Positions 1 through 32,971 of a DNA stretch of 64,000 bases are shown piece after piece. This stretch comes from Planctomycetota bacterium (lineage in GTDB: Bacteria; Planctomycetota; UBA8108; UBA1146): NCBI GenBank assembly GCA_012960845.1, contig DUAN01000189.1, positions 2,942 through 66,941 on the forward strand, given 5' to 3'. The notes below the pieces were generated by a model, which ran no database searches, was not told the origin of the DNA, and was given only the letters and a program-made list of their open reading frames with translations. Within the stretch, counting starts at the first letter, position 1; each line of letters opens with the position of its first letter. The position numbers and the translations under genes are program-made.

Positions 1-47
1 CAGCGGAGCGACAGAAGATCGAGAGTCTCCCTCCACATGAGCAACGC

Positions 48-611
48 TTGGTGCTGATGGGACGAAGAATCCATCGCTCTCTCTCTCTCTCCAAGCATGG
101 GCATCGTGTCATGTATCTGGCTCGCCACCTCACTCTGGCGCAGATGAATCAGTTCATCGAGACTGGGGATGTGGATGAGAGTCACCCGCAACTGCAAGAA
201 GCCGTCGCGCAGTTGAGTGATGAGATGAAGAAACGAATCCAGAAGCTGTTGCGAAGAGGTCGAGATCGACGCTTCAGGCCGAAGGGTGGCTTTCGGCCAC
301 CAGCGACCGGAGGCCAGGATCAAAGACCTCCTGCTCCTCCGGGAGCCAGGGGGCGCAATCATCCGCCTGGCGCCGCCGACCAGGAGCGAAGACCCCCACC
401 AGGAGCTGGGCCACGCAGGCTACGACCGGGTGGCGCAGATCGACGCCCCCGCCGAGAAATGATGCGAGGAGCCTCTCTCGAAGGAGCGGCTCTACCAGCT
501 CTCAAAGCGCTGATAGAAGTGGACCCCGCACCTCAAAATCGCACACCACAGGCTCTGGAAGGCCTCCACCGCTCCCTGGAAGACCTCGGGGCGCTCGACC
601 ACAATTCCTGA
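48..611 (+). CDS. hypothetical protein, possibly 5'-truncated at window edge; C-terminal Arg/Pro/Gly-rich low-complexity region
   Basis: Open frame from nt 3 with no upstream stop; GC3-rich codon usage; no recognisable domain by eye. Confidence 0.3.
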   Translation: MVLMGRRIHRSLSLSKHGHRVMYLARHLTLAQMNQFIETGDVDESHPQLQEAVAQLSDEMKKRIQKLLRRGRDRRFRPKGGFRPPATGGQDQRPPAPPGARGRNHPPGAADQERRPPPGAGPRRLRPGGADRRPRREMMRGASLEGAALPALKALIEVDPAPQNRTPQALEGLHRSLEDLGALDHNS

Positions 612-18400: not shown

Positions 18401-21175
18401 ACCGACCGGACGACGATCGATCAGCAGCACCAGATCTCCCGGCCTGGTCGATCTCCAACCGGCAGAGATGTGGTACCAGGTATCATCGGCGAAGGTGGTA
18501 GTGGTGACCGAGTGTCGCACCTCAGCTGCTGGAAGCACCTTGCTATCCCATGCAACTGCGGAACCGGTCTCATCAAAGACTTGCAGTACCAACTCCTGTG
18601 TATCCCCGGAGAAGAACAATCTCACACGATCGCGATAGCGATCCAGAGTCGGGCCTACCGAGTCAAAAATGATGCGATTGCCACTGCGCGATCCCCAGCG
18701 CGGGCGATACCAGAAATCGACCATTGCAGGAACTGTCGAAAGAGCGTCGTTGTTGGCACCCTGATCCGGCGTCAATTCGATTTGCGGCTCTCGCAATCCC
18801 CGCCCCCTGCGACCACCGCCTTGAGTCGGGTCAGCTTCTTGCTGTAGAAGAATTGAGCGCTTCCACGAACCATCTTCCAGTTCGTATCCTTCGATGGTCT
18901 CGTTGAAATGCTCGACCTCGAGCAAGCCCACCGCTCCGAATCCGTAGTTTCCAGAATCTCGATCGTAGGCGATGGTCTCCCCACGAAGAGTTCCCTCATC
19001 GAGAGAGGGACCGGTGAACTTTCGACGGTTGAGGGGGATCGGCCCACTGACCACAAGGTTCGACGCCCTACCGGGAACGAAAGTCGTATTGAAACGAGAA
19101 AAGCGCCCCCCTCCCGGATCCCGTGTGGCATAGATGGAAGCCCAATCCTGCTGAGTTTCTAGCCTCAATGAGAGCGGATCGGGAGGTGCGACCTCGATCA
19201 CTTCACGATACCGGACTGTCGCTTGCGGAGTACCCACAGGACTCCTGGCAACACCGGTAGACTCCACCGTGTAGATCTCCGATGTCGCATAGCAAAATCC
19301 AGTGGTAGAGATGGAGAGTCGTGGCTGATTTGGATTCAAGGCGTTGATGAGAATCGATTCTGAATCACCCCCATCGAGGACACCACTCAACTGAGCAGCT
19401 TCCACCACCTCACGAAAAGCAGCAAAACCAGAGATCGGCATCGCCTCCAGCAAGAGATCGGTCAACCCGCGAGCCTCTTTGACGGTCACTCCATTGAAGT
19501 TCTGCTCGAATCGATCGGTAGAGAGACCGGTCAATACCGCCTCGATGACTCTACGAGGGGCGGTGTTGATGTTGATGGGGTGCCTCAGTGCGGCACTGAC
19601 CATCGCCTCACGCTCAGCCCACTCGAATTTCAACGGCTCCTTGAGTATCACCCCGCCCTGGAAGATGGCTCCAGTTCCCATACCTCTGAATCCGCCCCGA
19701 GGAGTCGGGAACGCCCCGGCAGCAAGGCCGTACTCCACCTTGGAAGGATCATTGATACTACGAATCCGAACGACCGTCCCCGGATTGAAGAAGTCATATC
19801 GTGGAAGTCGCATCTGTGGCACTCCCAGCAGCGCACTATTGGTGATCTCGCCCTCGACCATCTGTTCCTGCGACCAAGCTCTTGGCTGAGTTGAGCTGGT
19901 AGTGATCAGGTCGCGGATCTGTTCAAACTCGAATGCCGAAAATGTTTCCATACCTGGGATATCGAATATTTCCTGGTAAGCGAGGATGGCACTGGGGAAG
20001 TAGGACTTGCCGCGTTTCTTGATCTTCTTCAGCTCTGGCGCGATGAAAGTCAAATACACACCTTTGAATGCATTCCCCCTGGCCTTGGTCAGACCAAACC
20101 CTTCGACCACCTCGGCCGCTTCGATCACTGCGGCTTTACCGCGAATCGACTCGAGCAGATCGACCACTTCCTTCGGGATATTATTATCGAGGAACAACTT
20201 TCGTGCCTTGCGATACTCTGCCTCGTCTACCTCCTCAGGCTCTTTCTGGAGCAAGGAAGGATCGATTCCAGCGCGCACCAGCATCTCGGTGGTCAGTCCC
20301 CAGTCCGCCATATTTTCAAAACTCAGGCCGACCACAGCAAGGGTCTGGAGGAAGTAAGGCACCACTGACCAATCGGCAATCTGGCGGATTCCAATCGGAG
20401 TACGAAAAGTGGCGATGTCTCCGTCCGAAAGGTTGGCGAGTCGGTGCAAGAATACCTTCAAGCCGCGCAGATCGAAGACCGGCCACCCTTTCTGGTGCTC
20501 CCATGTCCCCGACAAGTACTGCCCCCGGAAGATTCCGGTCAATGCCTTTTCGGTCTTGCCTGTGTAGGAGATCGCCTCGACAGTGAAGAAGAGCGGATTG
20601 AGGATCACGACCACACCATCCACCGTCTCCGGATCATCATCCGCAGGAAAGGACGAGGTGTCGTCGAGTGGCAATTCACCAATATCCGTTTCATAACTGA
20701 TCGCTTCTGAAAGGTGACTCCCGGCCAGCATGTTGCCGATGAGATTGGGCATCGCAGAGTTGATGTTGATCTTACCCTGCTCATCGGTCACCCGAGCATC
20801 GAGGATCACAGCAGAATCACCGCGCATCTGGAAGACCTCCGGCGCTGTGCCGACCACCGGCACGGAGGTGATCGTTGCGGGAAAATCGACCTTCAGTTCG
20901 TCGAGGCCGTCGATCAGATCTGGTGCCTCTGTACCGGGTCTCCACCGGTCTCGTTCACGACTGTGGTGGGTATCAAATAGTTTACTCAGAGCATGGCTCC
21001 TGGCACTTTGCGCTGCGAGACTCGCTCTTTGTTGCGCCAGTGATCGAGCGGCGCCTTTTTCCTGAAGTTTCATCGAGATCACGAATGGAGTGCCGATCGC
21101 GGCCAGGGCGGAAAGCACCAGGATCACCATCAACAGGGCCATTCCCCGCTCACGATACCGTATTAAATTATCCAC
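15434..21175 (-). CDS. giant (1913 aa) GspK-like minor pseudopilin / tip-like protein with large extracellular insertions
   Basis: N-terminus RERG|MALLMVILVLSALAAIG, prepilin-like but lacking Glu+5 as in GspK; two GspK-type helix-hairpin-helix motifs (KININSAMPNLIGNML and HPININTAPRRVIEAVLTGLS); single uninterrupted 5.7-kb ORF. Confidence 0.75.
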   Translation of the reverse strand: MDNLIRYRERGMALLMVILVLSALAAIGTPFVISMKLQEKGAARSLAQQRASLAAQSARSHALSKLFDTHHSRERDRWRPGTEAPDLIDGLDELKVDFPATITSVPVVGTAPEVFQMRGDSAVILDARVTDEQGKININSAMPNLIGNMLAGSHLSEAISYETDIGELPLDDTSSFPADDDPETVDGVVVILNPLFFTVEAISYTGKTEKALTGIFRGQYLSGTWEHQKGWPVFDLRGLKVFLHRLANLSDGDIATFRTPIGIRQIADWSVVPYFLQTLAVVGLSFENMADWGLTTEMLVRAGIDPSLLQKEPEEVDEAEYRKARKLFLDNNIPKEVVDLLESIRGKAAVIEAAEVVEGFGLTKARGNAFKGVYLTFIAPELKKIKKRGKSYFPSAILAYQEIFDIPGMETFSAFEFEQIRDLITTSSTQPRAWSQEQMVEGEITNSALLGVPQMRLPRYDFFNPGTVVRIRSINDPSKVEYGLAAGAFPTPRGGFRGMGTGAIFQGGVILKEPLKFEWAEREAMVSAALRHPININTAPRRVIEAVLTGLSTDRFEQNFNGVTVKEARGLTDLLLEAMPISGFAAFREVVEAAQLSGVLDGGDSESILINALNPNQPRLSISTTGFCYATSEIYTVESTGVARSPVGTPQATVRYREVIEVAPPDPLSLRLETQQDWASIYATRDPGGGRFSRFNTTFVPGRASNLVVSGPIPLNRRKFTGPSLDEGTLRGETIAYDRDSGNYGFGAVGLLEVEHFNETIEGYELEDGSWKRSILLQQEADPTQGGGRRGRGLREPQIELTPDQGANNDALSTVPAMVDFWYRPRWGSRSGNRIIFDSVGPTLDRYRDRVRLFFSGDTQELVLQVFDETGSAVAWDSKVLPAAEVRHSVTTTTFADDTWYHISAGWRSTRPGDLVLLIDRRPVGRQSWLSRLNGALSFSGNRVSIVDGDMATRFPPNGTLLVGSEAIDYSGREGASFIVRPPGPNGSPPIGRGVRGTVRSSHASGTPVRLLGYSLPLANSDPRRALTDSSNDIIIGPGGASLEIEVTPTMRVSAFNTSNGAVELTPATFSRASTQVPFSVGSPVTSTLELEPFAANSLSLLVQTNGSHPLELGFPPRGYLHIRQWTQQGTEPRRLVATEFAKYSSITPGPVPGLYRFTAMGRALLNSTATVGIITATSTTTLQVRGVSIESNATDLNQSYAPSGVIQIDYMPGSQSIGLLQDAEWIRYTQIAEGKFFICDPDQVDAFRGFTGDKYINTGDPFRRNRPLWDMNGIVRHAAGQEITQVVRAVGASAGFADEVILGDGYGDPTNRLREDTPLRVRKVRETDSGTYVSFYWPPEGIYRPGQDPRIRRFPSGGLPSSTNGEIRFGSSMISGDGIDAPGTLDEVRFSRLDSSDVETYAFPAASNGGFRTMAIQASPGLPSGVRTEVIQSGYSKQDSEQPGGVLDRIHLLARSKLTASAPQPQGPESGASLPTGGVRTFSKGDPRGFGLGKREGLFQVDDEVMHYTFDPGQVEPDVVIQLEQDLPRDPYLDENALGEGEVVPYDPNRDLRVEVVNSIQVDNTANLPPNGGFLEMISGPTNEVLYYEQASNGVLRNVLRGQLGSSVGGYVYQWSYTDAAGAVQVVTNTHRLRLIPSRIIDVMTRGMLATERTSNELGREPLVPLPSIPVARLAGQVAESGLTLEVMGPPGNEGGNRQLAGFPSGEGYLLVDDGIITTPDEIIAHTGAQGSSFGLFRDDRTGKGIFRGRFGTDFKVQPAGTPVIELLARHHDRYQPLVESKDLQYLERAWTMPGTMWDRIRWEVEQSRNRATAGSVRVLARFDGVPGWDSIPTNQPGGLYLFDDPADVNRLGQFGDALEIRIHYRHRKGAHGQTRQSGVWNDEWKHLPVLKTLGIEHRKEWRILHHEEYPY

Positions 21176-22562
21176 GGATCGCCCCCGTCATATCGATCAC
21201 GATGTTATGGAGGCGCAGAACCGACGTTCCATCGACATCGCCGATTCCGTAATGCATCCCTGGAGTCGAAGGAACCGGATTCTGCTCCTCTGCTTCCCCT
21301 GTGACAGCTTCAGGATCCACTTCCCAGTCCTCCAGATGTTTCATCAGATCCGAAATTGGATCCCCGAACGCCTGAGCAATCTCTTCATCTCGACTCGTCT
21401 GCTCCTGCCGCTCACGCTCGATACGATCCCTGAACCCTTCGCCGGCGACGGCTGTTCCATCGGCCGCTTCGATTTCGGAGAAATCACCCACTTCCGCCAC
21501 ATGAATCACAACGGGACGATTGTGTTGCAAGGGATCCAGAGCGCCTCGACCATCCAGATGGATCACGGTAGTGGGTCCCAGAATTTCGATGTCGATGGGC
21601 ATCTCCACGACCACCGGAGTGGTCGCCACACGGAGAACCACTTGATCGATGGCTCCCATGAAAAATCGATTGGGATGACTGATCCACAGGTCGGAATCAC
21701 TATGGGGGACAGCAGTGGGCAAAGGAGGCCATTGATCGATCACCACCTTTTCGAATCTCTCGGGCACCCAGGGCTGCTCGACGCCGTCGACTTCGATGAC
21801 CAGTTCAGTTCGGTCGAAGGTCGCTCTCAGGTGAACCCAGCGATCGGGAACCAGCGTAGAACCTTCCGTCTGTGCCCGGATGAACTCCCCTTCGCTGGCC
21901 CTCAGAGGGTCGCCGATCTCCATGTAGACAGCACCGTCCCCGAGGACTCCCATCTCGAAAGAGTTGGGGATTCCCAGAACTGCCATGCGCATTTCTCGTC
22001 GGGGATCGGAGAAGCCACCGTCGGGCTCGATACCAACCTCGGGAAGCCACGGTGGCTGCCAGAAATGAACCCACGCTTCGATGGAGACTCCATCTCGTCC
22101 ATCATAAATGGGAAGCCGCCGAACACGAAATGCAGCCCCATCGTCGAGGAACATCGCCCCTCTTCCGACGGAACCTGCGCAGGCTTCGACCCGTCCCACC
22201 AACTCCGCGGGTTGACGAAATGCCCCCACTGTCTTCGAGCCCGCGGGAAGCGGGATTTTTTCAGGAAGACCGTGAAAATCCTCGAATCCCCATGCTCCTG
22301 CGAGCTGGAATCCAAAGGCGCTCACTTTTCCTCGATCTGGATCGACCAGGATCCGGCTCGGCATCCCGGTAGAAATCGACCAGTTTCGAGCGGCGCGAAC
22401 CGTCGTCGAGATGCTGCTGGATGCGATCTCCAGCGATTGCGCCTCTCCAAATGACTGAAAAACGGAAATCGACAATCCCATCAAAACGGACAGGATCGAA
22501 AGAACCACCAGCAATTCCATCAGGGTCACACCGACCTCAGAATCGACTGCCTTCTTTACCAT
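21168..22562 (-). CDS. GspH-like pseudopilin fused to C-terminal LamG/ConA-like jelly-roll domain
   Basis: SEVG|VTLMELLVVLSILSVLMGLSISVF prepilin N-terminus with Glu+5; C-terminal DGVSIEAWVHF...RWVHLRATFDRTELVIEVDGVE LamG-like signature. Confidence 0.7.
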   Translation of the reverse strand: MVKKAVDSEVGVTLMELLVVLSILSVLMGLSISVFQSFGEAQSLEIASSSISTTVRAARNWSISTGMPSRILVDPDRGKVSAFGFQLAGAWGFEDFHGLPEKIPLPAGSKTVGAFRQPAELVGRVEACAGSVGRGAMFLDDGAAFRVRRLPIYDGRDGVSIEAWVHFWQPPWLPEVGIEPDGGFSDPRREMRMAVLGIPNSFEMGVLGDGAVYMEIGDPLRASEGEFIRAQTEGSTLVPDRWVHLRATFDRTELVIEVDGVEQPWVPERFEKVVIDQWPPLPTAVPHSDSDLWISHPNRFFMGAIDQVVLRVATTPVVVEMPIDIEILGPTTVIHLDGRGALDPLQHNRPVVIHVAEVGDFSEIEAADGTAVAGEGFRDRIERERQEQTSRDEEIAQAFGDPISDLMKHLEDWEVDPEAVTGEAEEQNPVPSTPGMHYGIGDVDGTSVLRLHNIVIDMTGAIRG

Positions 22563-23197: not shown

Positions 23198-25528
23198 CTA
23201 GTACTCCTGTTCCCGAACAGAGACCGCCTTGCGTCGAAAGACCTCGAACTCCTCGACCGCCAGCTTGTATCTCTCACCGAGCGGAGCCTGCCCTGAAAAA
23301 CCCGCCGTCAAACCAGACTTCCGGACAGGCCGATAGGAAATTTTTTGCGCCACAAGGATGCCGTCAAACCACAATTCCGCACCCTTCTTGCCGTCCCTGG
23401 TGAAGATGAACTCCAACTGGTGTGCCCGATCATCGAGATCCCAGGAGGTGGCAATTAATCCATAGTCTTCCGCCTGCTCAACATCGTCACTGCGCACCAT
23501 CTCGATCTCTTTGCCACCGAGAAGTGCGAAACCCAGAACGCCATCTGGATCACGGAAGAAGATCAGCCCTCCGCCCGATTGATCTTCGATGCGAAAAGCG
23601 ACCCTTGTGCCAGCCCCTGCGGACAACAACCGCAGTGTCGAACGAATGCCGGTCAAGCGTGGGGTTAGAACTTCTCGTTTCATAGTTGTCAGACGGTCCG
23701 GTTGGTGCTTCTGAACCCCATCCAGCACGGCCATTCCATCCTGGAGTGAAACGGAAACACCGAAGGCTTCCTCTTCTCGCCAGTTATTTTGCAGCGAGGA
23801 GTCCGCCTCCCTCTCGAAGTCATCGAACCAGTACTCTTCGCCAAGGGTTCGGTTAATTCTACGGAATGCCCGCAACGCCCAGCGCAAGGGAGCCGGAGAG
23901 TCCGGTGTCCAGGATTCGCGCAACTTTTCCGGGAACAGTTCGAGAGATTTCCCCAGAGCACGTCGAGCCCCCTGAAGATCTCCACTGGTGTGCAGAAATT
24001 CAGCGAGAGCATTCCAGCCATCGGGATTCTTTGGCTGTTCGATGGTCACGAGGGTGAGAGATTCTCGGGCCCGCTCGGGATCACCACCGGGCCCCCGTTG
24101 CGCCAGCCCAAGGCGAAGCATCACATCGGAGCCATCGAGCCCACTGGCGATGGCATACTCCAACCACCTTCTTGCTTCAGCCAGTTCCCCCAGGGAGAGT
24201 GCGTGATCCCCCAGTACCAGGGCACATTCAGCGAATGCTGCGGAGGACAATACGTCATGCCGCATCACCTTTTCGATCTCCGGGGTCGGATCCCAACCTG
24301 GCTCCAGTCGCATCCTCGCCTCGATGCTCAGTAACCGTGATTGCCAGGTGGCATCGGCCTGCAGCGCCGCTTCGAGATACAAGTCCACAGCGGCGCGCGA
24401 TTCCCCCCTCGACTCCAGCACATAGGCTTCCACCAGTCGCCAGTCCACCTCGACCTTGCTTCCCGAGGAAGCGGAAGACAGTAGGTCGAGAGCTTTTTCG
24501 AAATAACCCATCCGGGCAAAGGAGAGCGCAAAGGTAGTGGCAGCAATCGCATCGACACTACCTGCCCTGAAAGCCTTCTTGAAGTCGCTTTGCGCCAGGC
24601 TCAACTCATCATCGAGCAATCGTGCAGAACCTCGATAGAGATAACTTTGACCATCGTCACCACCAGCAACGATCAGGTCTTCAAACATCTGCTCGATCGA
24701 TTCCCGCGATTCCAACGACCCTGCGGCATAGTCGAGGACTGCCCAACGGATTTCTCGTTGCAAGACCTCGACGTCACTTCCACCACCGCCTTCACGCAGA
24801 CGGTTTGCTGCCTCTCTCGACTCAGCCGTTCGACCCAGAGAATCGAGAAGGACGACTAGTTTTTTCAGAGCGGCAGCGACGCGCGGGTCTGCCATTTCTC
24901 CTTCGCTGATCTGGGTGAGTAGAATGACTGCCGCTTCATGTTCGCCGATCTGGATCAACTGAGTCACCGCCAGTTCGACCAGACCATCCTGTTCGATCCC
25001 GGCCTGCACCCCACGAAGGAGAGTCTCGACCATCATCACAGCAGCCGCCATTTCCTGATCCCTGGTCTTGAACTGGCGAAGTTGAGTCTGTTGGTAGATC
25101 GGCATCAGCAGTAGATAAGGAGCGGGAGCTGCGGGATCCAGTCGTACCGATTCCTCCAGGTGGCTGACCCCTTGCTCCAATAGCCCCACACCGGGATCAA
25201 GGCACCACTGACCGATTTCAAACTGGGACTCAGAAGATGCAACATCGAAATCCCCCATCCGTCGCGCTTGATAGACCTTTTCCGGAGGATTCCGATACCT
25301 GATACTTTTGACTTCTGACATTTTGAAGGAGACCTTGCCCGCTGAAGTTTCAAACTGAATCAGTTCAGTCAACTCTGCGAGAATCGTGCCTTCGAACTGG
25401 TTGCCGTTGGTCAATTCGATCAGATCGAAAGCACGGATCTCCAGGTCGATGGCACTTTGGGCCTCGACCACGGACCAGGAAAAGAGCAGGAGGCTCAGCA
25501 GGACGATGCGGTTGTACTTGTTCATCAC
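23198..25528 (-). CDS. secreted TPR-repeat protein with C-terminal LamG-like/jelly-roll domain
   Basis: Signal peptide MMNKYNRIVLLSLLLFSWSVVEA; many TPR-like helical repeats; C-terminal HQLEFIFTRDGKKGAELWFDGILV jelly-roll signature. Confidence 0.65.
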   Translation of the reverse strand: MMNKYNRIVLLSLLLFSWSVVEAQSAIDLEIRAFDLIELTNGNQFEGTILAELTELIQFETSAGKVSFKMSEVKSIRYRNPPEKVYQARRMGDFDVASSESQFEIGQWCLDPGVGLLEQGVSHLEESVRLDPAAPAPYLLLMPIYQQTQLRQFKTRDQEMAAAVMMVETLLRGVQAGIEQDGLVELAVTQLIQIGEHEAAVILLTQISEGEMADPRVAAALKKLVVLLDSLGRTAESREAANRLREGGGGSDVEVLQREIRWAVLDYAAGSLESRESIEQMFEDLIVAGGDDGQSYLYRGSARLLDDELSLAQSDFKKAFRAGSVDAIAATTFALSFARMGYFEKALDLLSSASSGSKVEVDWRLVEAYVLESRGESRAAVDLYLEAALQADATWQSRLLSIEARMRLEPGWDPTPEIEKVMRHDVLSSAAFAECALVLGDHALSLGELAEARRWLEYAIASGLDGSDVMLRLGLAQRGPGGDPERARESLTLVTIEQPKNPDGWNALAEFLHTSGDLQGARRALGKSLELFPEKLRESWTPDSPAPLRWALRAFRRINRTLGEEYWFDDFEREADSSLQNNWREEEAFGVSVSLQDGMAVLDGVQKHQPDRLTTMKREVLTPRLTGIRSTLRLLSAGAGTRVAFRIEDQSGGGLIFFRDPDGVLGFALLGGKEIEMVRSDDVEQAEDYGLIATSWDLDDRAHQLEFIFTRDGKKGAELWFDGILVAQKISYRPVRKSGLTAGFSGQAPLGERYKLAVEEFEVFRRKAVSVREQEY

Positions 25529-25911
25529 TGCGACTCCTCATCTTCATCGACTGCCACGGGTATCTTCAGTTCAGCTCGCAAGCGGGTTCTGGGGTCCCCG
25601 GAGACCAGTGCTGGCAGTGGGATTCTGCGCGGCACGGAGCTCACTGGAGGTTCCCCGAGTAAATCCGCCGGAGCAGGTTTCCAATCGCTGACACTGGCGA
25701 ATGGATTTCTGGCCGCCTCGATGGGAGCCGGCTCATACCACTCCAGCCTCACCAGCCCTCCGACAGTTCCTCCATCGCTCGATTCCGGTGTCCGCAGATC
25801 GACAGCCGCAAGTGGATCTTCCAGGATGTAAGTCTTTGCCAGTCCCAGAAGATTCAGCAGCAAAAATCCAAGACAGAGGACGCAGAATCCTTTTTCGATA
25901 TTCCAGCGCAT
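25525..25911 (-). CDS. small membrane-anchored hypothetical protein (PilP-like position)
   Basis: N-terminal hydrophobic helix FCVLCLGFLLLNLLGLA; translationally coupled within operon; no domain recognised. Confidence 0.4.
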   Translation of the reverse strand: MRWNIEKGFCVLCLGFLLLNLLGLAKTYILEDPLAAVDLRTPESSDGGTVGGLVRLEWYEPAPIEAARNPFASVSDWKPAPADLLGEPPVSSVPRRIPLPALVSGDPRTRLRAELKIPVAVDEDEESQ

Positions 25912-26717
25912 CAGAACCCCCTCCTCGAACGGTCAGAACCCCTTCGAGTAGAACTCGACTCCACTCGGGGGTCTTCCATGTCGATCCCGACTACCGTCAA
26001 TTCCACTTCGATCTTGTCTCCACCAGATTTCTCAGGGATCACCCGGATCGGCTCCAGTGACAGGAATCCGCCATTTCTCTGGAAACGAAGCAGCATTTCT
26101 GCCAACTGTTCCGGCAAGCAGAGCATCTTGACCTGGAGGGGATAACGCGCGAGTACCTTGTCTGGATCTTGTAGCGCTTCCTGAATCCTCTTCGCCGGGT
26201 TCACGTCATCGAGACGCGCCACCCCGGTCTGAAGACAAACCCTGGTAAATCGATCGAGCACCTCCAGCAAGCGATATCGATCGGACCACTCCAGTAGAGA
26301 CAGGTCCGATCGCTCATCGAAATTCGGTATCTCAGCCGGCGTCACCATGCCAGCGCGATTGGCTTGGTTTCTGAAGTTGTTCCAGACCAGATCCTTGGCG
26401 CGCTTGAAGTCGGTACTGACAGATGCTTCATCGACCGATGGCTGGTGTACCGCAGAATAGGCAATGCCTAGTTTCTTGAGGAGATCCCGATTGCGCTCCT
26501 CGAGAGCGGTCCGGGATTTCCTCTCCACATCGACCACTCCTTCGAGCCCCTCGAGATCCTGAGCGACCAGTTGAGCATCCTCTTCATGACGAGCCAGGCT
26601 GATCTCATGCTCAGAGCGATAACCCCGGGTCACATTGGATATCACGAGAAAGATCGCCAGTGCGGAGAGAGCCTGGATCAAGACCTTACGATTTTTTTGC
26701 CAGATTTCCTGCATCAT
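25911..26717 (-). CDS. GspM/PilO-like bitopic inner-membrane assembly protein
   Basis: Single N-terminal TM (VLIQALSALAIFLVISNV), coiled-coil, C-terminal ferredoxin-like region; position after GspL-like gene. Confidence 0.5.
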   Translation of the reverse strand: MMQEIWQKNRKVLIQALSALAIFLVISNVTRGYRSEHEISLARHEEDAQLVAQDLEGLEGVVDVERKSRTALEERNRDLLKKLGIAYSAVHQPSVDEASVSTDFKRAKDLVWNNFRNQANRAGMVTPAEIPNFDERSDLSLLEWSDRYRLLEVLDRFTRVCLQTGVARLDDVNPAKRIQEALQDPDKVLARYPLQVKMLCLPEQLAEMLLRFQRNGGFLSLEPIRVIPEKSGGDKIEVELTVVGIDMEDPRVESSSTRRGSDRSRRGF

Positions 26718-28333
26718 CCTCTCCCCCCGAATGGTGACTTGGTTCGTCGCCTGCCTGGTCCACGGCTACTCTTCTCAGGTAATTTCTCATCCGGAGATAC
26801 CAGGATGCTGAAGGGATAGGCTCCTGACTTCTGATCGTCCGGTGTCGAGCGAACCCTCTCAACACCAGATATCCCCTCGAGGTTTCTCTGCAAGGTCTCG
26901 ATCGCTTCGAGCCCATTGCGACGAGAGTTATCGGACTGGCCGATCAACTCGATCTCGATTCCTATTTTCGCATCACCTACCACCCGGCGAAGGCTGATCT
27001 GCTCCAGTGAAATTTCCGAAGGGAGATCCTGGCGAAGACCATCGAGGATTTTCGCATAAAACTTCCCCGTCTCGATCTCCTGGACGATCCTGGTCTCTCT
27101 CTTGCGAAACACGTCGTTTTTGGTTCGAGCGTCTTCCTCGGCATTACGCCAACTGGTGATATTTCCGCGCCATTTGCGAATCGTTTCCGAGGCACCCGAG
27201 GAACGTCCGGCAGATACCGACACGTCCATCACCTGCAATCCGACGGCAAGAATCAGCGCTGCTACACCTACCCATAGAAATCGTGTGTGATCGCGGAACG
27301 TCCTGCGCTCGCATTCGGCGCTGGGTAACAGATCGACGATCTGCTCCTCCGAATCGAGCGCTGCTGCTGCGGTTCCGACTACCAGGGTCCACTGTGGGCC
27401 ATCGGTTCCACTAAAGGAGACTTCCTCGATATCTTTACCGAGCAGATCTCGTAATTCAGCACCGCGACACACCAGTGCCGCTCCGATGCCCGATACCAGA
27501 ATTCGATCTGCCACGACATCGTCAATTTTCAACTGTGCCTGGCAGAAGGTGAGGGAAGAAGTGAGCATCTGTCCCAGTTGGCTGGTCCACCCTCGGTGGC
27601 AGCCAATCATCGCCTCTTCTCCGTCGAGCAGGTCACCCGACGAGAAGGCTTCGACCATCTTGCGCGCTTTCGACTCCGAGACCGAGAGGCGTTCAGAGAC
27701 CAGATCCACCATCCCATTCAGGCCAAATCCAACGGTGCGAGCAAACAACAACCGATTCTCGCGGACCACCAGTACCTGCGTTTCTGCCTCCTGAACGTCG
27801 CACACCAGTACCGTCTGATCGCCACTGTCAGGACCATGGCTGGCGAGGTGCCCATGATAGGCCCCGATTGCAGAAGGCAATGCCAGCTGCACCTGCCCCT
27901 TACTCTCGCGAATCTGATCGATGATGGGCTGGATCACTGCGTCTTTCCCGACCCCTAGCAACAACAATGTGTCCTCGGAAAGGCTTTCAGGGACCAGCAG
28001 TTCGATGTGCCCACCGGAGAGTGCGTCTCCAGTCTTTTCGGCGATCTCCTCGATCTCGTAATGAAGGATCAAATCGAGTCTCCAGGAGGGCACCGGAGGC
28101 ACACTGTGGTAACGCAGAGAAGAACTCTCGCCATCGAGAACCAGCGCGATGTTACCGGTTGGGAATCCCAACTTCGACAGTTCAGCGATCCATGCACCGA
28201 TACTCGACTCATCATCGGGTTTCAACTCGTGGACAGAAGCCACTTCAACGGTGTGACCGACCCCACGTACATGGGCCGCACGCCAGCGATTTTCCTTCAC
28301 CTCGAGTACGGCTACCTGCCCCTTGTAGGACAT
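26714..28333 (-). CDS. GspL-like protein: cytoplasmic actin-like (PilM-type) domain, one TM, periplasmic PilN-like domain
   Basis: N-terminal PilM/GspL-cyto-like region, TM helix FLWVGVAALILAVGLQVMDV, ~150-aa periplasmic tail. Confidence 0.6.
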   Translation of the reverse strand: MSYKGQVAVLEVKENRWRAAHVRGVGHTVEVASVHELKPDDESSIGAWIAELSKLGFPTGNIALVLDGESSSLRYHSVPPVPSWRLDLILHYEIEEIAEKTGDALSGGHIELLVPESLSEDTLLLLGVGKDAVIQPIIDQIRESKGQVQLALPSAIGAYHGHLASHGPDSGDQTVLVCDVQEAETQVLVVRENRLLFARTVGFGLNGMVDLVSERLSVSESKARKMVEAFSSGDLLDGEEAMIGCHRGWTSQLGQMLTSSLTFCQAQLKIDDVVADRILVSGIGAALVCRGAELRDLLGKDIEEVSFSGTDGPQWTLVVGTAAAALDSEEQIVDLLPSAECERRTFRDHTRFLWVGVAALILAVGLQVMDVSVSAGRSSGASETIRKWRGNITSWRNAEEDARTKNDVFRKRETRIVQEIETGKFYAKILDGLRQDLPSEISLEQISLRRVVGDAKIGIEIELIGQSDNSRRNGLEAIETLQRNLEGISGVERVRSTPDDQKSGAYPFSILVSPDEKLPEKSSRGPGRRRTKSPFGGRG

Positions 28334-30894
28334 CAGTTCCCCCTCGCATGGATGAGTTTCAATTCCTGAATCGCAACGGCCGCTCCCGGTGAGCCCGGAT
28401 ACTGATTCAGCAACGATTGAAAGTAGAATCGTGCGATCTCGAATCTGTTTTTACCGAGCGCCTCGTGAGCACGAGCCAGCAACAGTTCCACCTTACCGAC
28501 GGTCAAGAGTTGCTCTGCATTTGTGTTTTCACTCTTGCGCTGATCGATGATTTCCTGCGCCCTCGTGGCCGGATCCAGTCCCCCGAATCTAGCCATCGAT
28601 TCGCGGCAGATCCTTTCGAGATAGGTACCGGTAGGTGACCCTGGAAACTTCGATGAATCCTCAAGGACGGCTGCGATCTGCCCGAGCGCAGCACTGACCT
28701 CGACATCGATGTGGTGCTCGAACTGATCCAGTTTTCGGGCCACGTCGGCTCGCCAGGGGAAATCTGCTCGAGCCTTCTGGATCAATCGAGCCGCATCCCC
28801 CTCGGCCCTGGCATCGATGGCGCGTTCCACCTCGGCGAGAGCCTCCAGCACTCGGGATTGCTCGCGCTCACTACTGGCGGTGAATGAAACATCGAGCGCG
28901 CCTCCGGCGATGATAATTCCTGCGTCCGCCATCCACAGCGTGCCTCGCCCGTCATGGTCAGGGAATACCGAAAACGTCATCGGCTGTTGAAATGTCGCCA
29001 CCATCTGGTCCTTGCCGATTCCGATCGAGATCTCGGTGCCGGAACAGGGCTGCAGATCGGTCCAGCGATCCGCCGAGATGACCAGTTTATTGCCGACAAA
29101 GACCTGCACAGGAGAAGAACCCCTTCGGCGAGGAATCCTCCCGACCAGGATCAATGGAGTGGGGCGTTGCGGAGTCCAACTGGCTGCAATCTTCCAGCCG
29201 ATGGAGCGAGCGAACTGCTGAATCGCCACCTTTCCTTGCCCTAGTTCATCCAGTTCGAAACCGAGTCGAACCGATCCGTCATCCCCGGTGACCACTTGCT
29301 CTCGCCGAACCGGCAGTAACTGCCCCCATGGCATCGCTCTGGGAGGTCCGACCGCCACTCGAAGGTCCGAGATCAATTCCTGCCGTCCCCGCATCAACTT
29401 GCCAACGCCGTAGGCATCGATGGCCAGATCCATCTTCTGTTCATCATCACCTGCGGAAATGACGACCGCTGGATCTCTCCCAGTCTCGACCGCTCTGACC
29501 ACCAACTGGTCGAGCAATAGTTGACCGCTTCCTTGCCCCAGTGCCACCAGCGAGACTCTTGCAGACCCTCCATTTCCCTTCACCGGAGGTGCAAACTCTG
29601 CAGCATGCCCACTCCAGTTCGAGGACGACTTCAAGGAAGAAAACTGTTCGTCAATTATTCGGTCACCTTGATCGCTCGACTCGATCCAACGAACGCAGAA
29701 TCCGATCCGATCGAAACCGACCTTTTGAAGACGAGCACTGAGCCGTAAACCATGACCCTGATCGACCTCGAAGATGGTGTCATACTCGAGGCGGAAAATC
29801 CCCAGTGCATCGGCTTCTCCGCTGCACAAGAGCCACTGCTTCCCCTGTGGAGCCTGGTCGCCTCGTTGAACATCGAGGGTTCCCTCGCCGCTGGCGAGTC
29901 GCCATGGTCCATCGAGTATCGGGCCGATGGGCACCTGTTCGAAATGTCCAGCTCCGGAAAGCCGATCACCCCGGGGGACCACCAGGTCAGGATTACTTGC
30001 GAGATCCTCAATCCACCCGTAGCCAGAGTAGAGCACCACACCCAGTACCAGGATGAAGGAGATGGTGAAGAGCCCCTGAGATCCCTGTGAACCAACATCG
30101 ACCCGGGTACTACGCCCCACTGTCATCTCGGCGGTAGGATTGGCCGCCGACCGGGTCGTCATACGAATGGCTGCTCGCCCATCTCCAGCTGATTTCGACC
30201 GACCGGGAAATCCCATCGCGGTGAACTTCGTCATGCCGATGCGGAATTGAACCCCATCTCTCAGTTCCAGTTTCTTGACCTTCTGTTGCCCCACCACGAT
30301 TCCATTTCCGGAGCCGAGGTCGGACATGTACCACTCACCATCTTGCTCGAGCAGGACGGCGTGCTTGGAAGATATTCTATTGTCCTCGATGGTCACGTCG
30401 GCCTCTTCGGCGCGCCCGATAACCACTCGCCCAACCGCTGGGATCCAGTGATCGATACCGCCATGCTGATAGGCCAGGCAAGGACCGGTGGGTGCAGTTG
30501 TGACAGAAGTTGCTGTGGAAGATGTGGCCGGTGCAGAAGCAGGTGCTGCGATCGGCGTTCGATCGGTATCATCCTCGAGTAGAGCCCCGTCTGTCAATTC
30601 TAGCAGCAACTCCGCATCCCCGATGCAGATGCAATCGCCATGAGAGAGGGTCACCTGGTCGACCTTTTGCCCGTGCAGGAGACTTCCATTGGAGGAAGAG
30701 AGATCCTGATAGATGAAAGCATCCCCCTCCCAGCGAAAAACTCCATGCTTTCTAGAAGCGGCTCGATCCTCGATCACGATGCGAGACCCGGGGTCCCTGC
30801 CGATTGTGATCGGTTCCTGAGAGATGTTGACGATGGTCTTGCGACCGATGTCCTTCACGCGAATCCTGCCACTCATGCTAGTGCTCCCCATCAT
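28333..30894 (-). CDS. membrane protein with two N-terminal cytoplasmic FHA domains, one TM helix, large periplasmic domain and C-terminal TPR-like helical region
   Basis: FHA1 ITIGRDPGSRIVIEDRAASRKHGVF...SSNGSLLHGQKV, FHA2 VVIGRAEEADVTIEDNRISSKHAVL...GSGNGIVVGQQKV, TM LFTISFILVLGVVLYSGYGWI; no P-loop. Confidence 0.75.
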   Translation of the reverse strand: MMGSTSMSGRIRVKDIGRKTIVNISQEPITIGRDPGSRIVIEDRAASRKHGVFRWEGDAFIYQDLSSSNGSLLHGQKVDQVTLSHGDCICIGDAELLLELTDGALLEDDTDRTPIAAPASAPATSSTATSVTTAPTGPCLAYQHGGIDHWIPAVGRVVIGRAEEADVTIEDNRISSKHAVLLEQDGEWYMSDLGSGNGIVVGQQKVKKLELRDGVQFRIGMTKFTAMGFPGRSKSAGDGRAAIRMTTRSAANPTAEMTVGRSTRVDVGSQGSQGLFTISFILVLGVVLYSGYGWIEDLASNPDLVVPRGDRLSGAGHFEQVPIGPILDGPWRLASGEGTLDVQRGDQAPQGKQWLLCSGEADALGIFRLEYDTIFEVDQGHGLRLSARLQKVGFDRIGFCVRWIESSDQGDRIIDEQFSSLKSSSNWSGHAAEFAPPVKGNGGSARVSLVALGQGSGQLLLDQLVVRAVETGRDPAVVISAGDDEQKMDLAIDAYGVGKLMRGRQELISDLRVAVGPPRAMPWGQLLPVRREQVVTGDDGSVRLGFELDELGQGKVAIQQFARSIGWKIAASWTPQRPTPLILVGRIPRRRGSSPVQVFVGNKLVISADRWTDLQPCSGTEISIGIGKDQMVATFQQPMTFSVFPDHDGRGTLWMADAGIIIAGGALDVSFTASSEREQSRVLEALAEVERAIDARAEGDAARLIQKARADFPWRADVARKLDQFEHHIDVEVSAALGQIAAVLEDSSKFPGSPTGTYLERICRESMARFGGLDPATRAQEIIDQRKSENTNAEQLLTVGKVELLLARAHEALGKNRFEIARFYFQSLLNQYPGSPGAAVAIQELKLIHARGN

Positions 30895-32971
30895 TCCCTG
30901 AATTACGCTTCAAACGATACTTCTCGATCTTCTGATCCAGTGTCGGTCTTGAGACTCCCAGTTGTCGGGCGGTCTTGCTCTTGTTCCAGGAGTTCTCCTC
31001 GAGGATGGCAGCGATCACCTGACGCTCCAGGCCCTCGGTCGCTTCTGCCACCAGTTCCCGCAGGGTGCCGCGCATCGGTTCACGATTTTCAGATCCCGCC
31101 TTGGGACCATGCGACAGCACCGATGGGGAGATCGTCTCGGGGACGATGACGTCTTCGGAGAGCGCCACCAGGCGCTCGATCTCATTCTCCAGCTGACGAA
31201 CATTGCCAGGCCAGGGACTGTGATAGAGTGCATATAGAGTTCTCGGATCCATCTTGGGTCGATCTCGATCATGGCGGGAACAGACCTCATCGATGAAGTG
31301 GTCCACCAGCAGTGGAATGTCCTCTCGTCGTTCTCGAAGAGCGGGCAACTGGACCGTCAGAACATTCAATCGATAGTAAAGGTCTTCGCGAAAATTACCG
31401 TTTCGAACCATCTCTTCGAGCTTTTGATTGGTGGCGGATAGGATCCGAACTTCCACGCGAATCGTATCCCGAGATCCGACCGGTCGAATTTCACCATCTT
31501 CGAGAACCCGCAGTAATTTCGCCTGTAGTTCCTTACTCATGTCGCCGATCTCATCGAGGAACAGGGTGCCTCCATCGGCCAGTTCGAAGAGCCCCTTCTT
31601 GTCGCGATGGGCGCCAGTGAAGGCACCCTTCACATGACCGAAGAACTCACTCTCCAGCAAATTCTCAGGAATCGCTGCGCAGTTCTGCGAGACGAAGGGC
31701 TGGTCCTTGCGGTTCGATCCAACGTGAACCGCCTGTGCCACCAGTTCCTTGCCGGTTCCGCTCTCTCCGAGGATCAGCACCGGCATGTCGGTATTGATCA
31801 CGCGATCGAGCAGTTCGAAGACTCGAATCATGATCGGCGAGCGGGTCACGATTCGATCAAAGGAGTGCTTCAGATCGGGTCTGGCCCCTCGTTTGAGTAA
31901 CTCCCGAACATCCTCGGGTTCTACATCTCGAGCAATCAGCATCGCCTGAAATTCTCGGTTCAGCGCCTCGACCTGGTCCTTGGAAGACTGGATCGCTTCC
32001 TGTTTGCGATGCAGTTCCTCGAACAAACGGGCATTCTCGATGTAGATCGCTGCCTGATCCGCGAGGAACTGGACGAAACGGAGAGTCCCCTTATGGAATG
32101 AGTGCTTTTCAAATCGATTATCGACATAGGCGGCACCCAGTATCTTGCCACGCAATCGAAGGGGCACACACAGGACCGACTCCAGCCGCAAGTTTGCGAT
32201 GGAGGCCGATTCATGGAAGCGAGGATCACTTCGTGCATCTCCGGTCAATACCGGCTCACCCGAATCGATGACTCTCCGAGTGAGTGACTGGCTGACCTGT
32301 AGGTGAGCCCTTCGAACCACATCTCGGTCGATGTTTCGGGATGAAGCCACCCGCAGTTCCCCATCCTCCTCGATGATCAAGAATCCCCGCTCCGCTCCAG
32401 AAATCTCGATGATATTCTGAAGGATCACCTCGAACAGTTCTTCCGTCACGAGGATGGCACCGAGGTCCCTGGTCAACTGGAGCAAGCGGAGAAAGATCTC
32501 TCTTTCCTTCTGGAAGCGAATCGGATCCTCGGTGGTGGCCTCTTCTGCGATCGGTTCAAGAAAGTACTCGGTACTGAGAACCAGGGTTTCGCCGGCAGGA
32601 GCATTTTCACGATGCATTTCAGGAATCTCGCCGAAGAAGATCTGAGTCTTGCCGATCTCGATCAGATCCCCGACCATCAAGGGCTGACGCCGAATCAGGA
32701 TCCCGTTGACGAGAGTGCCATTGCGACTTCGCAGGTCCTCGATGTGCCAGCGCCCCTGGATCCTGTTCAACTGACAATGCTCACGGGATGACGAGATGTC
32801 GCCGACCTCGACATCGTTCTCTCGTGAGCGACCGATGGCGATCGATTCTGCATCCAACCGGACACGGCGCTCCCCCGCCATATCACGAATGATCAGCTCA
32901 GCAGGGCTCGCCGCGTGGTTCGGCTGCCCTCCATGTCGTGCTCGTTCAGGCACGTCCAATGTGGTCTCCAT
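30878..32971 (-). CDS. sigma-54-dependent transcriptional activator with N-terminal FHA and GAF domains (FHA-GAF-AAA+-HTH)
   Basis: FHA IAIGRSRENDVEVGDISSSREHCQL...SRNGTLVNG; GAF; sigma-54 activator motifs VLILGESGTGKELVAQAVH, ESEFFGHVKGAFTGA; C-terminal Fis-type HTH. Confidence 0.85.
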   Translation of the reverse strand: METTLDVPERARHGGQPNHAASPAELIIRDMAGERRVRLDAESIAIGRSRENDVEVGDISSSREHCQLNRIQGRWHIEDLRSRNGTLVNGILIRRQPLMVGDLIEIGKTQIFFGEIPEMHRENAPAGETLVLSTEYFLEPIAEEATTEDPIRFQKEREIFLRLLQLTRDLGAILVTEELFEVILQNIIEISGAERGFLIIEEDGELRVASSRNIDRDVVRRAHLQVSQSLTRRVIDSGEPVLTGDARSDPRFHESASIANLRLESVLCVPLRLRGKILGAAYVDNRFEKHSFHKGTLRFVQFLADQAAIYIENARLFEELHRKQEAIQSSKDQVEALNREFQAMLIARDVEPEDVRELLKRGARPDLKHSFDRIVTRSPIMIRVFELLDRVINTDMPVLILGESGTGKELVAQAVHVGSNRKDQPFVSQNCAAIPENLLESEFFGHVKGAFTGAHRDKKGLFELADGGTLFLDEIGDMSKELQAKLLRVLEDGEIRPVGSRDTIRVEVRILSATNQKLEEMVRNGNFREDLYYRLNVLTVQLPALRERREDIPLLVDHFIDEVCSRHDRDRPKMDPRTLYALYHSPWPGNVRQLENEIERLVALSEDVIVPETISPSVLSHGPKAGSENREPMRGTLRELVAEATEGLERQVIAAILEENSWNKSKTARQLGVSRPTLDQKIEKYRLKRNSGNDGEH

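Follow-up and report, generated by a model that had tools for sequence, protein, structure and literature searches.

A predicted modular minor pseudopilin with a LamG-like jelly roll in a type IV filament gene cluster of Planctomycetota

Modular pilins have been defined as proteins that combine the IPR012902 motif with a domain that is not specific to type IV filaments (Raynaud et al. 2021; PMC8179133), and the pairing of IPR012902 with PF13385 is the commonest architecture among them, with 229 proteins (PMC8179133, Dataset S1). The pilin moiety of S. sanguinis PilC is unusually short and bears a ConA-like module, and the protein belongs to a glycan-binding complex of minor pilins (PMC9934059), while XcpH has been described as a low-abundance adapter that binds J and links the I-J-K tip with the G filament (bioRxiv 10.1101/2020.12.11.420943). 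Here we describe a 464-aa protein, encoded in a 64-kb stretch of planctomycete DNA (the window), that has both elements of the modular pilin definition. The original prediction presented its architecture as unusual, but it is in fact the most frequent one on record, and as one more member of what is the largest class of modular pilins known, the protein changes little alone. Its value is contextual, in that it marks an uncharacterised type IV filament cluster with wide conservation among uncultured marine Planctomycetota. We favour, at a probability of roughly 55%, the reading that it is a modular minor pseudopilin acting as the H-role adapter of a T2SS-like Planctomycetota type IV filament, with the jelly roll as its binding module (Table 1).

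Table 1. Coordinates of the candidate modular minor pseudopilin, its predicted parts and the neighbouring genes in the window.
Feature	Position	Strand	Basis
Modular minor pseudopilin gene, tentatively H-type by context	21168..22562	-	464 aa, ATG start, stop codon 21168-21170
Leader peptide MVKKAVDSEVG, residues 1-11	22530..22562	-	Gly11 precedes predicted prepilin-peptidase cut
Pilin helix α1, residues 12-65	22368..22529	-	Hydrophobic α1N with E16 (mature position 5), amphipathic α1C
Short β-hairpin, residues 66-84	22311..22367	-	AF2 strands 69-74, 79-83
ConA/LamG-like jelly roll, residues ~85-313	21624..22310	-	Pfam PF13385, AF2, Foldseek, covariation
Conserved post-LamG β region, residues 314-358	21489..21623	-	AF2 strands 317-358, pLDDT 83-88
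Acidic linker, residues 359-433	21264..21488	-	Low confidence, pLDDT 39-68; Asp or Glu at 22/75 residues
C-terminal β-hairpin, residues 434-464 (...VLRLHNIVIDMTGAIRG)	21171..21263	-	AF2 strands 435-438, 446-456, pLDDT 70-89
GspG-like major pseudopilin, 213 aa	22556..23197	-	Pfam N_methyl 33.5 bits, T2SSG 24.1 bits; NCBIfam GspG E 6.6e-11
Giant GspK-like minor pseudopilin, 1913 aa	15434..21175	-	RERG|MALLM, without Glu at mature position 5
J-like minor pseudopilin, 372 aa	14352..15470	-	Pfam N_methyl; weak GspJ and Verru_Chthon-C N-terminal matches
I-like minor pseudopilin, 172 aa	13846..14364	-	Pfam N_methyl; PilV E 3.2e-5, GspI E 1.6e-4, both sub-threshold
Upstream part of the same tightly packed gene string	23198..32971	-	Pfam and NCBIfam matches

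The ORF list and its translation place the reading frame on the minus strand, at exactly the span given by the original prediction, which did not state the strand, and all the strings quoted there were found in the translation (SEVG|VTLMELLVVLSILSVLMG at residues 8-29, DGVSIEAWVHF at 157-167 and RWVHLRATFDRTELVIEVDGVE at 241-262). On the plus strand, a 454-aa ORF (21090-22454) was rejected as an antisense shadow, as homologues, domains and the codon-position GC pattern fit the minus-strand frame. We found 28 full-length homologues with 25-95% identity, all from Planctomycetota MAGs, and the family is widespread across uncultured Planctomycetota (631 clusters at 50% identity, E≤1e-10), including short-form relatives of 316-342 aa. 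With 464 aa, the protein is indeed far larger than a canonical pseudopilin.

The predicted prepilin N-terminus proved to be real. The class III signal, MVKKAVDSEVG|VTLMELLVVLSILSVLMG, has the G11|V12 junction and Glu at +5, from which we infer a prepilin-peptidase cut after Gly11; the protein passes the cutoff of the NCBIfam model of the prepilin N-terminal domain, TIGR02532 (16.8 bits, cutoff 16.3), and a profile of the family matches solved type IV pilin N-terminal helices in the PDB (E 4e-6). Mature position +4 is Met in place of the usual Ile, Leu or Val, and Pfam N_methyl gave no match to the 464-aa protein itself at E≤0.01. Both observations could be taken to mean that the protein is no filament subunit at all but bitopic in the inner membrane, where a pilin-like signal anchor would hold a periplasmic LamG domain, a reading which we regard as very improbable, given that G11, T13 and E16 (positions -1, +2 and +5) are invariant family-wide together with R59, that N_methyl matches 25 of the 27 family members, and that the gene is translationally coupled and embedded between two pilin genes, the G-like and the K-like. 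A filament subunit is also suggested by the pilin-type architecture, namely an α1 of about 50 residues with β-structure packed on its C-terminal half, which was recovered by AF2 (helices 14-41 and 43-65), by covariation and by the PDB profile matches. The conserved R-A-A-R-N motif lies in α1C (residues 56-60), which covaries with the following hairpin (pairs 61-84, 58-82 and 62-69).

According to the AF2 model (pLDDT 80.2, pTM 0.65), the pilin part consists of α1 and one hairpin, a short stub spanning residues 12-84, and this hairpin is the sole pilin-head element ahead of the jelly roll. The jelly roll already includes residues ~85-140, as seen from AF2 strands and the covariation pairs 92-307, 94-158, 123-301 and 125-295, and a pseudopilin of about 150 aa followed by a fused domain, as first proposed, is thus not what the model contains. 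The jelly-roll fold itself was correctly predicted and is recovered by AF2 and Foldseek alike, but its span of ~85-313 differs from the ~150-464 originally given and never reaches residue 464. In the predicted structure, a short stub bearing a jelly roll of ~230 residues, with a conserved C-terminal β region behind it, appears to stand in for the usual globular head of an H protein.

The core of the domain that Pfam can detect, Laminin_G_3 (PF13385), covers residues ~142-312 with E 9.7e-5 and 23 bits against a gathering score of 27.6. The same family was detected at E≤0.01 in 25/27 orthologues, and in the four short-form relatives tested it scored 47.7-63.8 bits, over the gathering score. AF2 predicts a two-sheet jelly-roll β-sandwich with confidence (pLDDT mostly 83-95 in the β-strands across residues ~100-360); a clade-conserved loop is inserted at residues 168-191 (GIEPDGGFSDPRREMR). 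Foldseek returned 165 PDB matches to the model at E≤1e-3, with ConA-like jelly rolls at E about 1e-6 to 2e-6, a probability of 1.00 and target-normalised TM ≤0.65; the top matches were BoNT/B Hc-N, AbnA domain 4 (5hon, TM 0.65), a trans-sialidase lectin domain and CBM40, and the nearest structural neighbours are mostly jelly rolls associated with carbohydrates or gangliosides. PL7 alginate lyases were also among the Foldseek matches, and pilins bearing a peptidase exist (PMC8179133), so that the jelly roll could be imagined as an enzyme on a pilin, namely a ConA-like glucanase or lyase of the PL7 or GH16 kind. We rejected the PL7-like reading on account of its poor superpositions (rmsd 9-15 Å, TM 0.20-0.36), and an enzyme of any such kind is barely conceivable, since neither Pfam nor NCBIfam matched an enzyme family and the sequence signature, Laminin_G_3, is that of a non-catalytic family. 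If the jelly roll is a binding module, the parallel with S. sanguinis PilC makes a glycan or polysaccharide the most probable ligand. Among the conserved columns of the wide-family alignments, no residues that would bind sugar or Ca could be made out; the invariant columns are structural LamG positions and a G-x-L-D-x3-H motif behind the LamG domain.

This motif belongs to the post-LamG region, where G340, L342 and H347 are invariant, and is present in 153 of 159 relatives. The acidic linker that follows is an insertion specific to the long-form clade and is missing from the relatives of 316-342 aa, but the C-terminal hairpin behind it is conserved in long and short forms. For 186 relatives (Meff ~170), mean-field DCA yielded credible contacts inside the LamG sandwich. 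The C-terminal hairpin covaries weakly with the N-terminal hairpin (83-462) and with the post-LamG region (325-454), and these hints, together with 80-327 and 47-321, are by a rough estimate not enriched over chance. A single sheet formed by the N-terminal hairpin, residues 317-328 and the C-terminal hairpin is suggested by DCA hints only, which are not statistically enriched, and domain packing and module orientation were deduced solely from secondary structure, pLDDT and covariation. Some of the top DCA pairs involving α1N are implausible.

The 464-aa gene is flanked by a G-like and a giant K-like gene, its start overlapping the stop of the former and its stop the start of the latter, and overlapping or abutting frames run through the G-H-K-J-I genes as a tightly packed operon. 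The 213-aa G-like protein contains DPWGVPY and SAGPDG, which we take to be GspG-type motifs. The 1913-aa protein has a sub-threshold match to NCBIfam T2SS_GspK at its N-terminus (E 3.9e-9) and a weak match to Pfam T2SSK at 534-555, and K-like orthologues of 1518-1917 aa hold the same position in relatives. A LamG-like stretch at ~760-1000 of this protein did not match the family profile significantly (probability 0.9%), and one K-like orthologue has only a faint precomputed match to Laminin_G_3. The J-like orthologue in one relative (L031) faintly matches T2SSJ. Upstream, the string encodes a sigma-54 activator (FHA-GAF-AAA-HTH), a double-FHA protein (853 aa), a PilM-like protein (539 aa), two unknowns (268 and 128 aa) and a TPR protein (776 aa), and this upstream order is also seen in distant relatives. 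The FHA-domain sigma-54 activator and the double-FHA protein precede the cluster in the window and in three of the four relatives examined, while a scan of the cluster for the sigma-54 promoter consensus gave no convincing site. The synteny PilM-x-TPR-G-H(LamG)-K(giant)-J-I persists at identities as low as ~27% and also holds for the short-form relatives examined. Within the 64-kb window, no GspD, GspE, GspF or prepilin peptidase (peptidase A24) is encoded.

It is mainly this context, with a G-like gene upstream and K-, J- and I-like genes downstream, that suggests an H-type minor pseudopilin, because the HMM matches are sub-threshold and hhalign is non-discriminating. The GspH, XpsH, Verru_Chthon-D and PpdA-type HMMs are the best pilin models in 23-25 of the 27 members, and all of them are sub-threshold; for the 464-aa protein, TIGR01708 (GspH) gives 24.6 bits against a cutoff of 80 and XpsH 25.7 against 160, over residues 11-81 only, and none of the curated GspH/FimU cutoffs (TIGR01708, NF047827, PF12019) is reached. 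In one relative (P0094), the segment equivalent to residues 51-74 (α1C/β1) matches Pfam GspH PF12019. When the family profile was compared with E. coli GspH and GspG by hhalign, only the hydrophobic N-terminus was aligned, with GspG scoring slightly higher, and neither the PDB sequence-profile matches nor the top 50 fold matches include GspH, EpsH or FimU. Thus, the label GspH-like holds as regards the top-scoring pilin models and the gene context, but not as regards HMM cutoffs or profile comparison, and the H-type assignment may be made tentatively at best.

In the favoured reading, prepilin peptidase would cut after Gly11 and the hydrophobic α1, with Glu at mature position 5, would enter the filament core. 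The protein would then take the H (GspH/FimU) role of a low-copy adapter between the I-J-K initiation complex, capped by the 1913-aa K-like protein, and the polymer formed by the neighbouring GspG-like major subunit, and the jelly roll might project sideways just under the filament tip as a binding module that cooperates with the giant K cap. Display of the domain along the fibre, as the original prediction had it, is unlikely, because H-type subunits are low-abundance adapters placed directly under the I-J-K tip (10.1101/2020.12.11.420943). The same place in the filament would also suit a LamG domain that is a protein-protein module, either to dock or buttress the giant K-like cap or to recognise secreted cargo in a periplasmic T2SS-type endopilus. 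ConA-like domains mediate protein-protein contacts as well. The LamG-bearing H and the giant K (1500-1900 aa) co-occur constantly in the relatives examined, the major subunit is of the GspG type and hence T2SS-like rather than T4P-like, no ligand-binding loop residues are conserved across the wide family, and the most conserved extras, the G-x-L-D-x3-H motif and the C-terminal strand, resemble interface elements; moreover, tip complexes are known to use β-strand addition in their assembly (PMC13533445). We nevertheless consider a protein-protein module rather unlikely, as most of the closest folds are associated with carbohydrates or gangliosides, the pilin precedent that has been characterised, PilC, is part of a glycan-binding complex, and an H-K contact is without direct evidence.

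If the tip complex does bind polysaccharide as the favoured reading supposes, it would become a candidate for the capture of polymeric substrates by planctomycetes, in whose crateriform structures dextran has been reported to bind to pili-like fibres (PMC5394234). Here we speculate that the PilM-x-TPR-G-H(LamG)-K-J-I cluster might encode these polysaccharide-binding fibres; a filament working by retraction or like a piston, tipped with a glycan "harpoon" of H and the giant K, would then deliver polymers to be taken up into the enlarged periplasm. This idea is improbable as it stands, but if true it would give a molecular handle on the long-debated uptake of macromolecules by planctomycetes. 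Literature searches for LamG with a pseudopilin or minor pilin, and for planctomycete minor pilins, returned nothing specific.

Compared with known systems, the protein resembles GspH, XcpH and FimU in its prepilin N-terminus with E5, in its α1C/β1 segment (RAARN...SRILV), which gives the best although sub-threshold HMM matches, in the position of its gene next to a G-like gene within an I/J/K-like set, and in its presumed role as adapter under the tip. Canonical H proteins, however, have ~145-196 aa and a two-sheet globular head, whereas at 464 aa this protein has a jelly roll in that place and no detectable head, and the gene order is G-H-K-J-I instead of the canonical G-H-I-J-K. A second likeness is to the Verru_Chthon cassette of the PVC superphylum (TIGR02600, TIGR02598, TIGR02599 and TIGR02596; Verrucomicrobia/Chthoniobacter), which likewise consists of three prepilin-type proteins and one very large protein, and on which the searchable literature held nothing. 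Verru_Chthon-D (TIGR02596), a model of 196 positions, is the single best NCBIfam match to the 464-aa protein (E 1.2e-6), and the C and B models match the J-like and I-like neighbours faintly, far below cutoff. Membership as cassette protein D was rejected, as the score is 28.8 bits against a cutoff of 70 and no TIGR02600 (Verru_Chthon A) match is listed for the 1913-aa protein. FimT, CofB, TcpB and ComZ follow the same principle of a minor pilin near the tip that gives binding specificity, with FimT binding DNA and CofB and ComZ carrying extra β-domains, but they have other folds, belong to other systems and none has a LamG module.

The closest parallel is with S. sanguinis PilC, although its structure was absent among the top 50 fold matches found by Foldseek. 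PilC belongs to the T4P of a monoderm, its lectin module is preceded by an Ig-like module, and its partner is the I-like pilin PilA. Unlike PilC, the 464-aa protein comes from a diderm planctomycete with a GspG-type major subunit, has a conserved β region and a C-terminal hairpin after its module, and is accompanied by a full set of I, J and giant K. Both are thought to be minor, low-abundance subunits that form part of a tip complex, and both combine a class III signal peptide, α1 and an unusually short pilin moiety with a grafted ConA-like β-sandwich.

In silico, the predicted 464-aa minor pseudopilin H(LamG) combines a prepilin-type N-terminus with a LamG fold and a place in a conserved pseudopilin operon. 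Its 464-codon, ATG-initiated open reading frame was delimited from the ORF list and translation, and the three strings quoted in the original prediction were all recovered from this minus-strand protein, at residues 8-29, 157-167 and 241-262; translating the plus strand here gives a protein other than the one described there. A 454-aa plus-strand ORF without supporting homology was rejected as an antisense shadow of the pseudopilin gene, because homologues and domains all lie in the minus frame, whose GC pattern by codon position (0.67/0.44/0.60) is like that of the adjacent minus-strand genes. The gene is translationally coupled to both neighbours: its start codon shares bases with the stop codon of the 213-aa gene upstream, and its own stop codon with the start of the 1913-aa gene downstream.

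Features of the pseudopilin, its gene cluster and other parts of the window
Feature	Residues	Window position	Strand	Basis or remarks
H(LamG) pseudopilin gene	1-464	21168-22562	-	ORF list, translation
Leader peptide	1-11			sequence, family alignment
Helix alpha1	12-65			AF2
One beta-hairpin	66-84			AF2
Jelly roll	~85-313			AF2, Pfam in relatives, covariation
Conserved beta region	314-358			AF2, alignments
G340-x-L342-D-x3-H347	340-347	21522-21545	-	within the conserved beta region
Acidic, low-confidence segment	359-433	21264-21488	-	AF2, composition
Conserved terminal hairpin (...RLHNIVIDMTGAIRG)	434-464			AF2, alignments
Rejected 454-aa ORF		21090-22454	+	antisense shadow
Giant K-like protein, 1913 aa		15434-21175	-	GspK-like prepilin-type N-terminus, weak T2SSK match
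PilM-like protein, 539 aa		26714-28333	-	weak PilM and Amuc_1101-family similarity (Akkermansia PilM-like pilus protein)
Sigma-54 enhancer-binding protein (N-terminal FHA and GAF), then 853-aa two-FHA protein		28333-32971	-	cluster head
5'-nucleotidase joined to nucleoside transporter, 936 aa		55358-58168	-	Metallophos and 5_nucleotid_C; Nucleos_tra2_N/Gate/C (concentrative type)
HEAT-repeat and VWA-domain protein, 609 aa		1250-3079	-	paralogue of the next
HEAT-repeat and VWA-domain protein, 567 aa		51861-53564	-	paralogue of the former

As far as sequence can show, the protein is a prepilin, as originally proposed. Its N-terminus, MVKKAVDSEVG/VTLMELLVVLSILSVLMG, shows the class III signal-peptide residues Gly(-1), Thr(+2) and Glu(+5), and all 27 aligned family members share G11, T13 and E16. 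NCBIfam TIGR02532 scores above its cutoff (16.8 vs 16.3 bits), the family profile matches type IV pilins of known structure in their N-terminal helices (E 4e-6 to 1e-3), and the AF2 model has residues 14-65 in one unbroken helix. Pfam N_methyl matches 25/27 family members and gave no match to the 464-aa protein at E<=0.01. In addition, the family lacks a conserved cysteine pair, which suits pseudopilins better than classical T4a pilins.

The more specific label of a GspH-like protein is weakly supported: GspH/XpsH-type models rank among the best and the gene context fits H, but the scores all lie far under the curated cutoffs. The best NCBIfam pilin models were Verru_Chthon cassette D (E 1.2e-6), XpsH (8e-6) and GspH (2e-5), with alignments that cover residues 11-81, past the generic hydrophobic segment; family-wide, GspH matches 25 of the 27 members (best E 6e-9), XpsH and a PpdA-type model 23 each, and GspG just 7. 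Pfam GspH touches one relative, at the equivalent of residues 51-74. Comparison by hhalign with one E. coli sequence each of GspH and GspG could not tell the two apart. The stronger argument for the H role is the gene context. The upstream neighbour is a GspG-type major pseudopilin (T2SSG and GspG HMM matches, sequences DPWGVPY and SAGPDG), and beyond the 1913-aa K-like gene, which lies next downstream, come genes for a J-like (372 aa) and an I/PilV-like (172 aa) prepilin. With the G, K, J and I roles thus filled, the 464-aa protein would, by elimination, be the H-type subunit of a G-H-K-J-I set.

The jelly roll was found by Pfam in relatives, in the AF2 model and by Foldseek. Laminin_G_3 stays below threshold on the protein itself (23 vs 27.6 bits, E 9.7e-5), is found in 25/27 orthologues and scores well over threshold in four shorter members of the family (47.7-63.8 bits). 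The AF2 model, built from a 27-sequence alignment, has a mean pLDDT of 80.2 (mostly 83-95 across the beta-rich residues ~100-360) and gave 165 Foldseek matches in the PDB at E<=1e-3, the best of which are all ConA-like sandwiches. Top matches include AbnA domain 4 (5hon; TM 0.65 normalised to target), CBM40 (TM 0.59), the BoNT/B Hc-N lectin-like domain and the T. cruzi trans-sialidase lectin domain; PL7 lyases also appear, with poor superposition. The outcome that would have refuted the original prediction, absence of a jelly roll, was therefore not obtained.

The anatomy departs from the proposed GspH portion of ~150 residues with a jelly roll up to residue 464. Residues ~85-140 (LAGAWGFED...) are already beta-strands in the model and covary with the jelly-roll core (pairs 92-307, 94-158, 119-145, 123-301 and 125-295); as modelled they are not a GspH head, and the pilin moiety is thus a stub of ~70 residues, like the short pilin stub described for S. 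sanguinis PilC (PMC9934059). The jelly roll, with its Pfam-detectable core at ~142-312 (position transferred from relatives), ends at ~313 and is followed by the beta region, acidic segment and terminal hairpin. Within the beta region, the G-x-L-D-x3-H motif is invariant or near-invariant (kept in 153/159 relatives, long and short forms) and conserved above every LamG loop; it might represent a metal site or a J/K interface. The acidic segment (22/75 residues Asp or Glu; pLDDT 39-68) holds a conserved AFGDPIxDLMxxLExW helix. Since the short-form relatives aligned (316-342 aa) miss this segment only and retain the terminal strand, the acidic stretch is a clade-specific insertion and the terminal hairpin part of the core design. 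A few, statistically insecure covariation pairs (80-327, 83-462, 325-454 and 47-321) suggest that hairpin 66-84, strands ~317-328 and the terminal hairpin form one pilin-head sheet, with LamG nested inside.

Close homologues (n=28) are of the long form (440-512 aa) and nearly all labelled Planctomycetota MAGs, and the gene occurs in 27 GTDB species-representative genomes, almost all labelled Planctomycetota or uncultured. One carrier of this gene, elsewhere confined to Planctomycetota, is labelled Bacillota bacterium (QNYK01000100.1) and one Proteobacteria bacterium (JAFMMO010000098.1), probably through MAG mislabelling or mis-binning. When 1.84 billion cluster representatives were scanned exhaustively with HMMER, 631 proteins reached E<=1e-10 (111 of them E<=1e-30), mostly of 316-500 aa and matched as one stretch over profile positions ~5-360; the names given at source go no further than 'prepilin-type N-terminal cleavage/methylation domain-containing protein' or 'LamG-like jellyroll fold domain-containing protein [Planctomycetota bacterium]'.

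Gene order is the same in four relatives (27-41% identity or short form): PilM-like, small unknown(s), large TPR, G, H(LamG), K, J, I, with the K orthologues (1518-1917 aa) always directly after the LamG pseudopilin. In the giant K, the GspK-like N-terminus is without Glu5, the T2SSK match covers residues 534-555 (ININTA), and no other Pfam or PDB relatives were found. It has the look of a K protein fused to a tip adhesin, and could be called more unusual than the LamG pseudopilin itself. The FHA-containing sigma-54 activator and the double-FHA protein adjoin the cluster in the window and in three of the four relatives (L001, L003 and L032), both being absent from the stretch read in the fourth (L031), and suggest that the filament is controlled through phospho-threonine; no promoter with a sigma-54 consensus turned up. 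After the PilM-like gene come two genes for small proteins of unknown type (268 and 128 aa) and one for a TPR protein of 776 aa, the products all possibly alignment or platform components. No ATPase (GspE), platform protein (GspF), secretin (GspD) or prepilin peptidase is encoded within the 64-kb window, and no GspD, GspE, GspF or prepilin peptidase was apparent among called genes in the +/-10 kb flanks of the four relatives. Elsewhere in the window, the 936-aa protein apparently unites enzyme and transporter in one chain for nucleotide scavenging.

The I, J and K subunits of type IV filaments make up the initiating tip complex. H is known as a low-abundance adapter between this complex and the G polymer (10.1101/2020.12.11.420943), which argues against the proposed display of LamG along the fibre; instead, the module would project laterally, in about one copy, just beneath the very large K cap. 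K-type subunits hold large adhesins at the tip, either in trans (PilC/PilY1) or in cis (PMC13533445). Given the analogy with PilC (PMC9934059) and the structural neighbours of the jelly roll, ligand binding would be the most likely job of LamG, with a glycan as the probable ligand. Yet no conserved sugar-binding residues are identifiable in the family and the most conserved extras resemble interface elements, so that a protein-protein role, in which the module docks the giant K or recognises the cargo of a T2SS-like endopilus, competes seriously with glycan binding. That the cluster builds polysaccharide-binding planctomycete fibres, with H-LamG and the giant K as a glycan-capturing tip, strikes us as quite improbable: dextran-binding fibres are described in planctomycetes (PMC5394234), and in those species the family was not demonstrable, nor was any link found between the cluster genes and such fibres.

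Together, the observation behind the original prediction is confirmed; in its interpretation, the prepilin and the jelly roll are supported, whereas the 150-aa head, the domain extent and the display along the fibre are not supported. Our literature search found no paper on a LamG-bearing H-type pseudopilin or on the planctomycetal cluster, and some family members carry the NCBI label LamG-like jelly-roll protein. Variant features perhaps worth noting are the possible nesting of LamG in the pilin head, the conserved G-x-L-D-x3-H, the clade-specific acidic insertion and the constant co-occurrence with a giant K. The concept of modular pilins is established, IPR012902-PF13385 being their most frequent architecture (229 proteins) in the InterPro-based survey by Raynaud et al. 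2021 (PMC8179133), and S. sanguinis PilC is a ConA-like modular pilin characterised in structure and function (PMC9934059); as such, the 464-aa protein adds to an established class.
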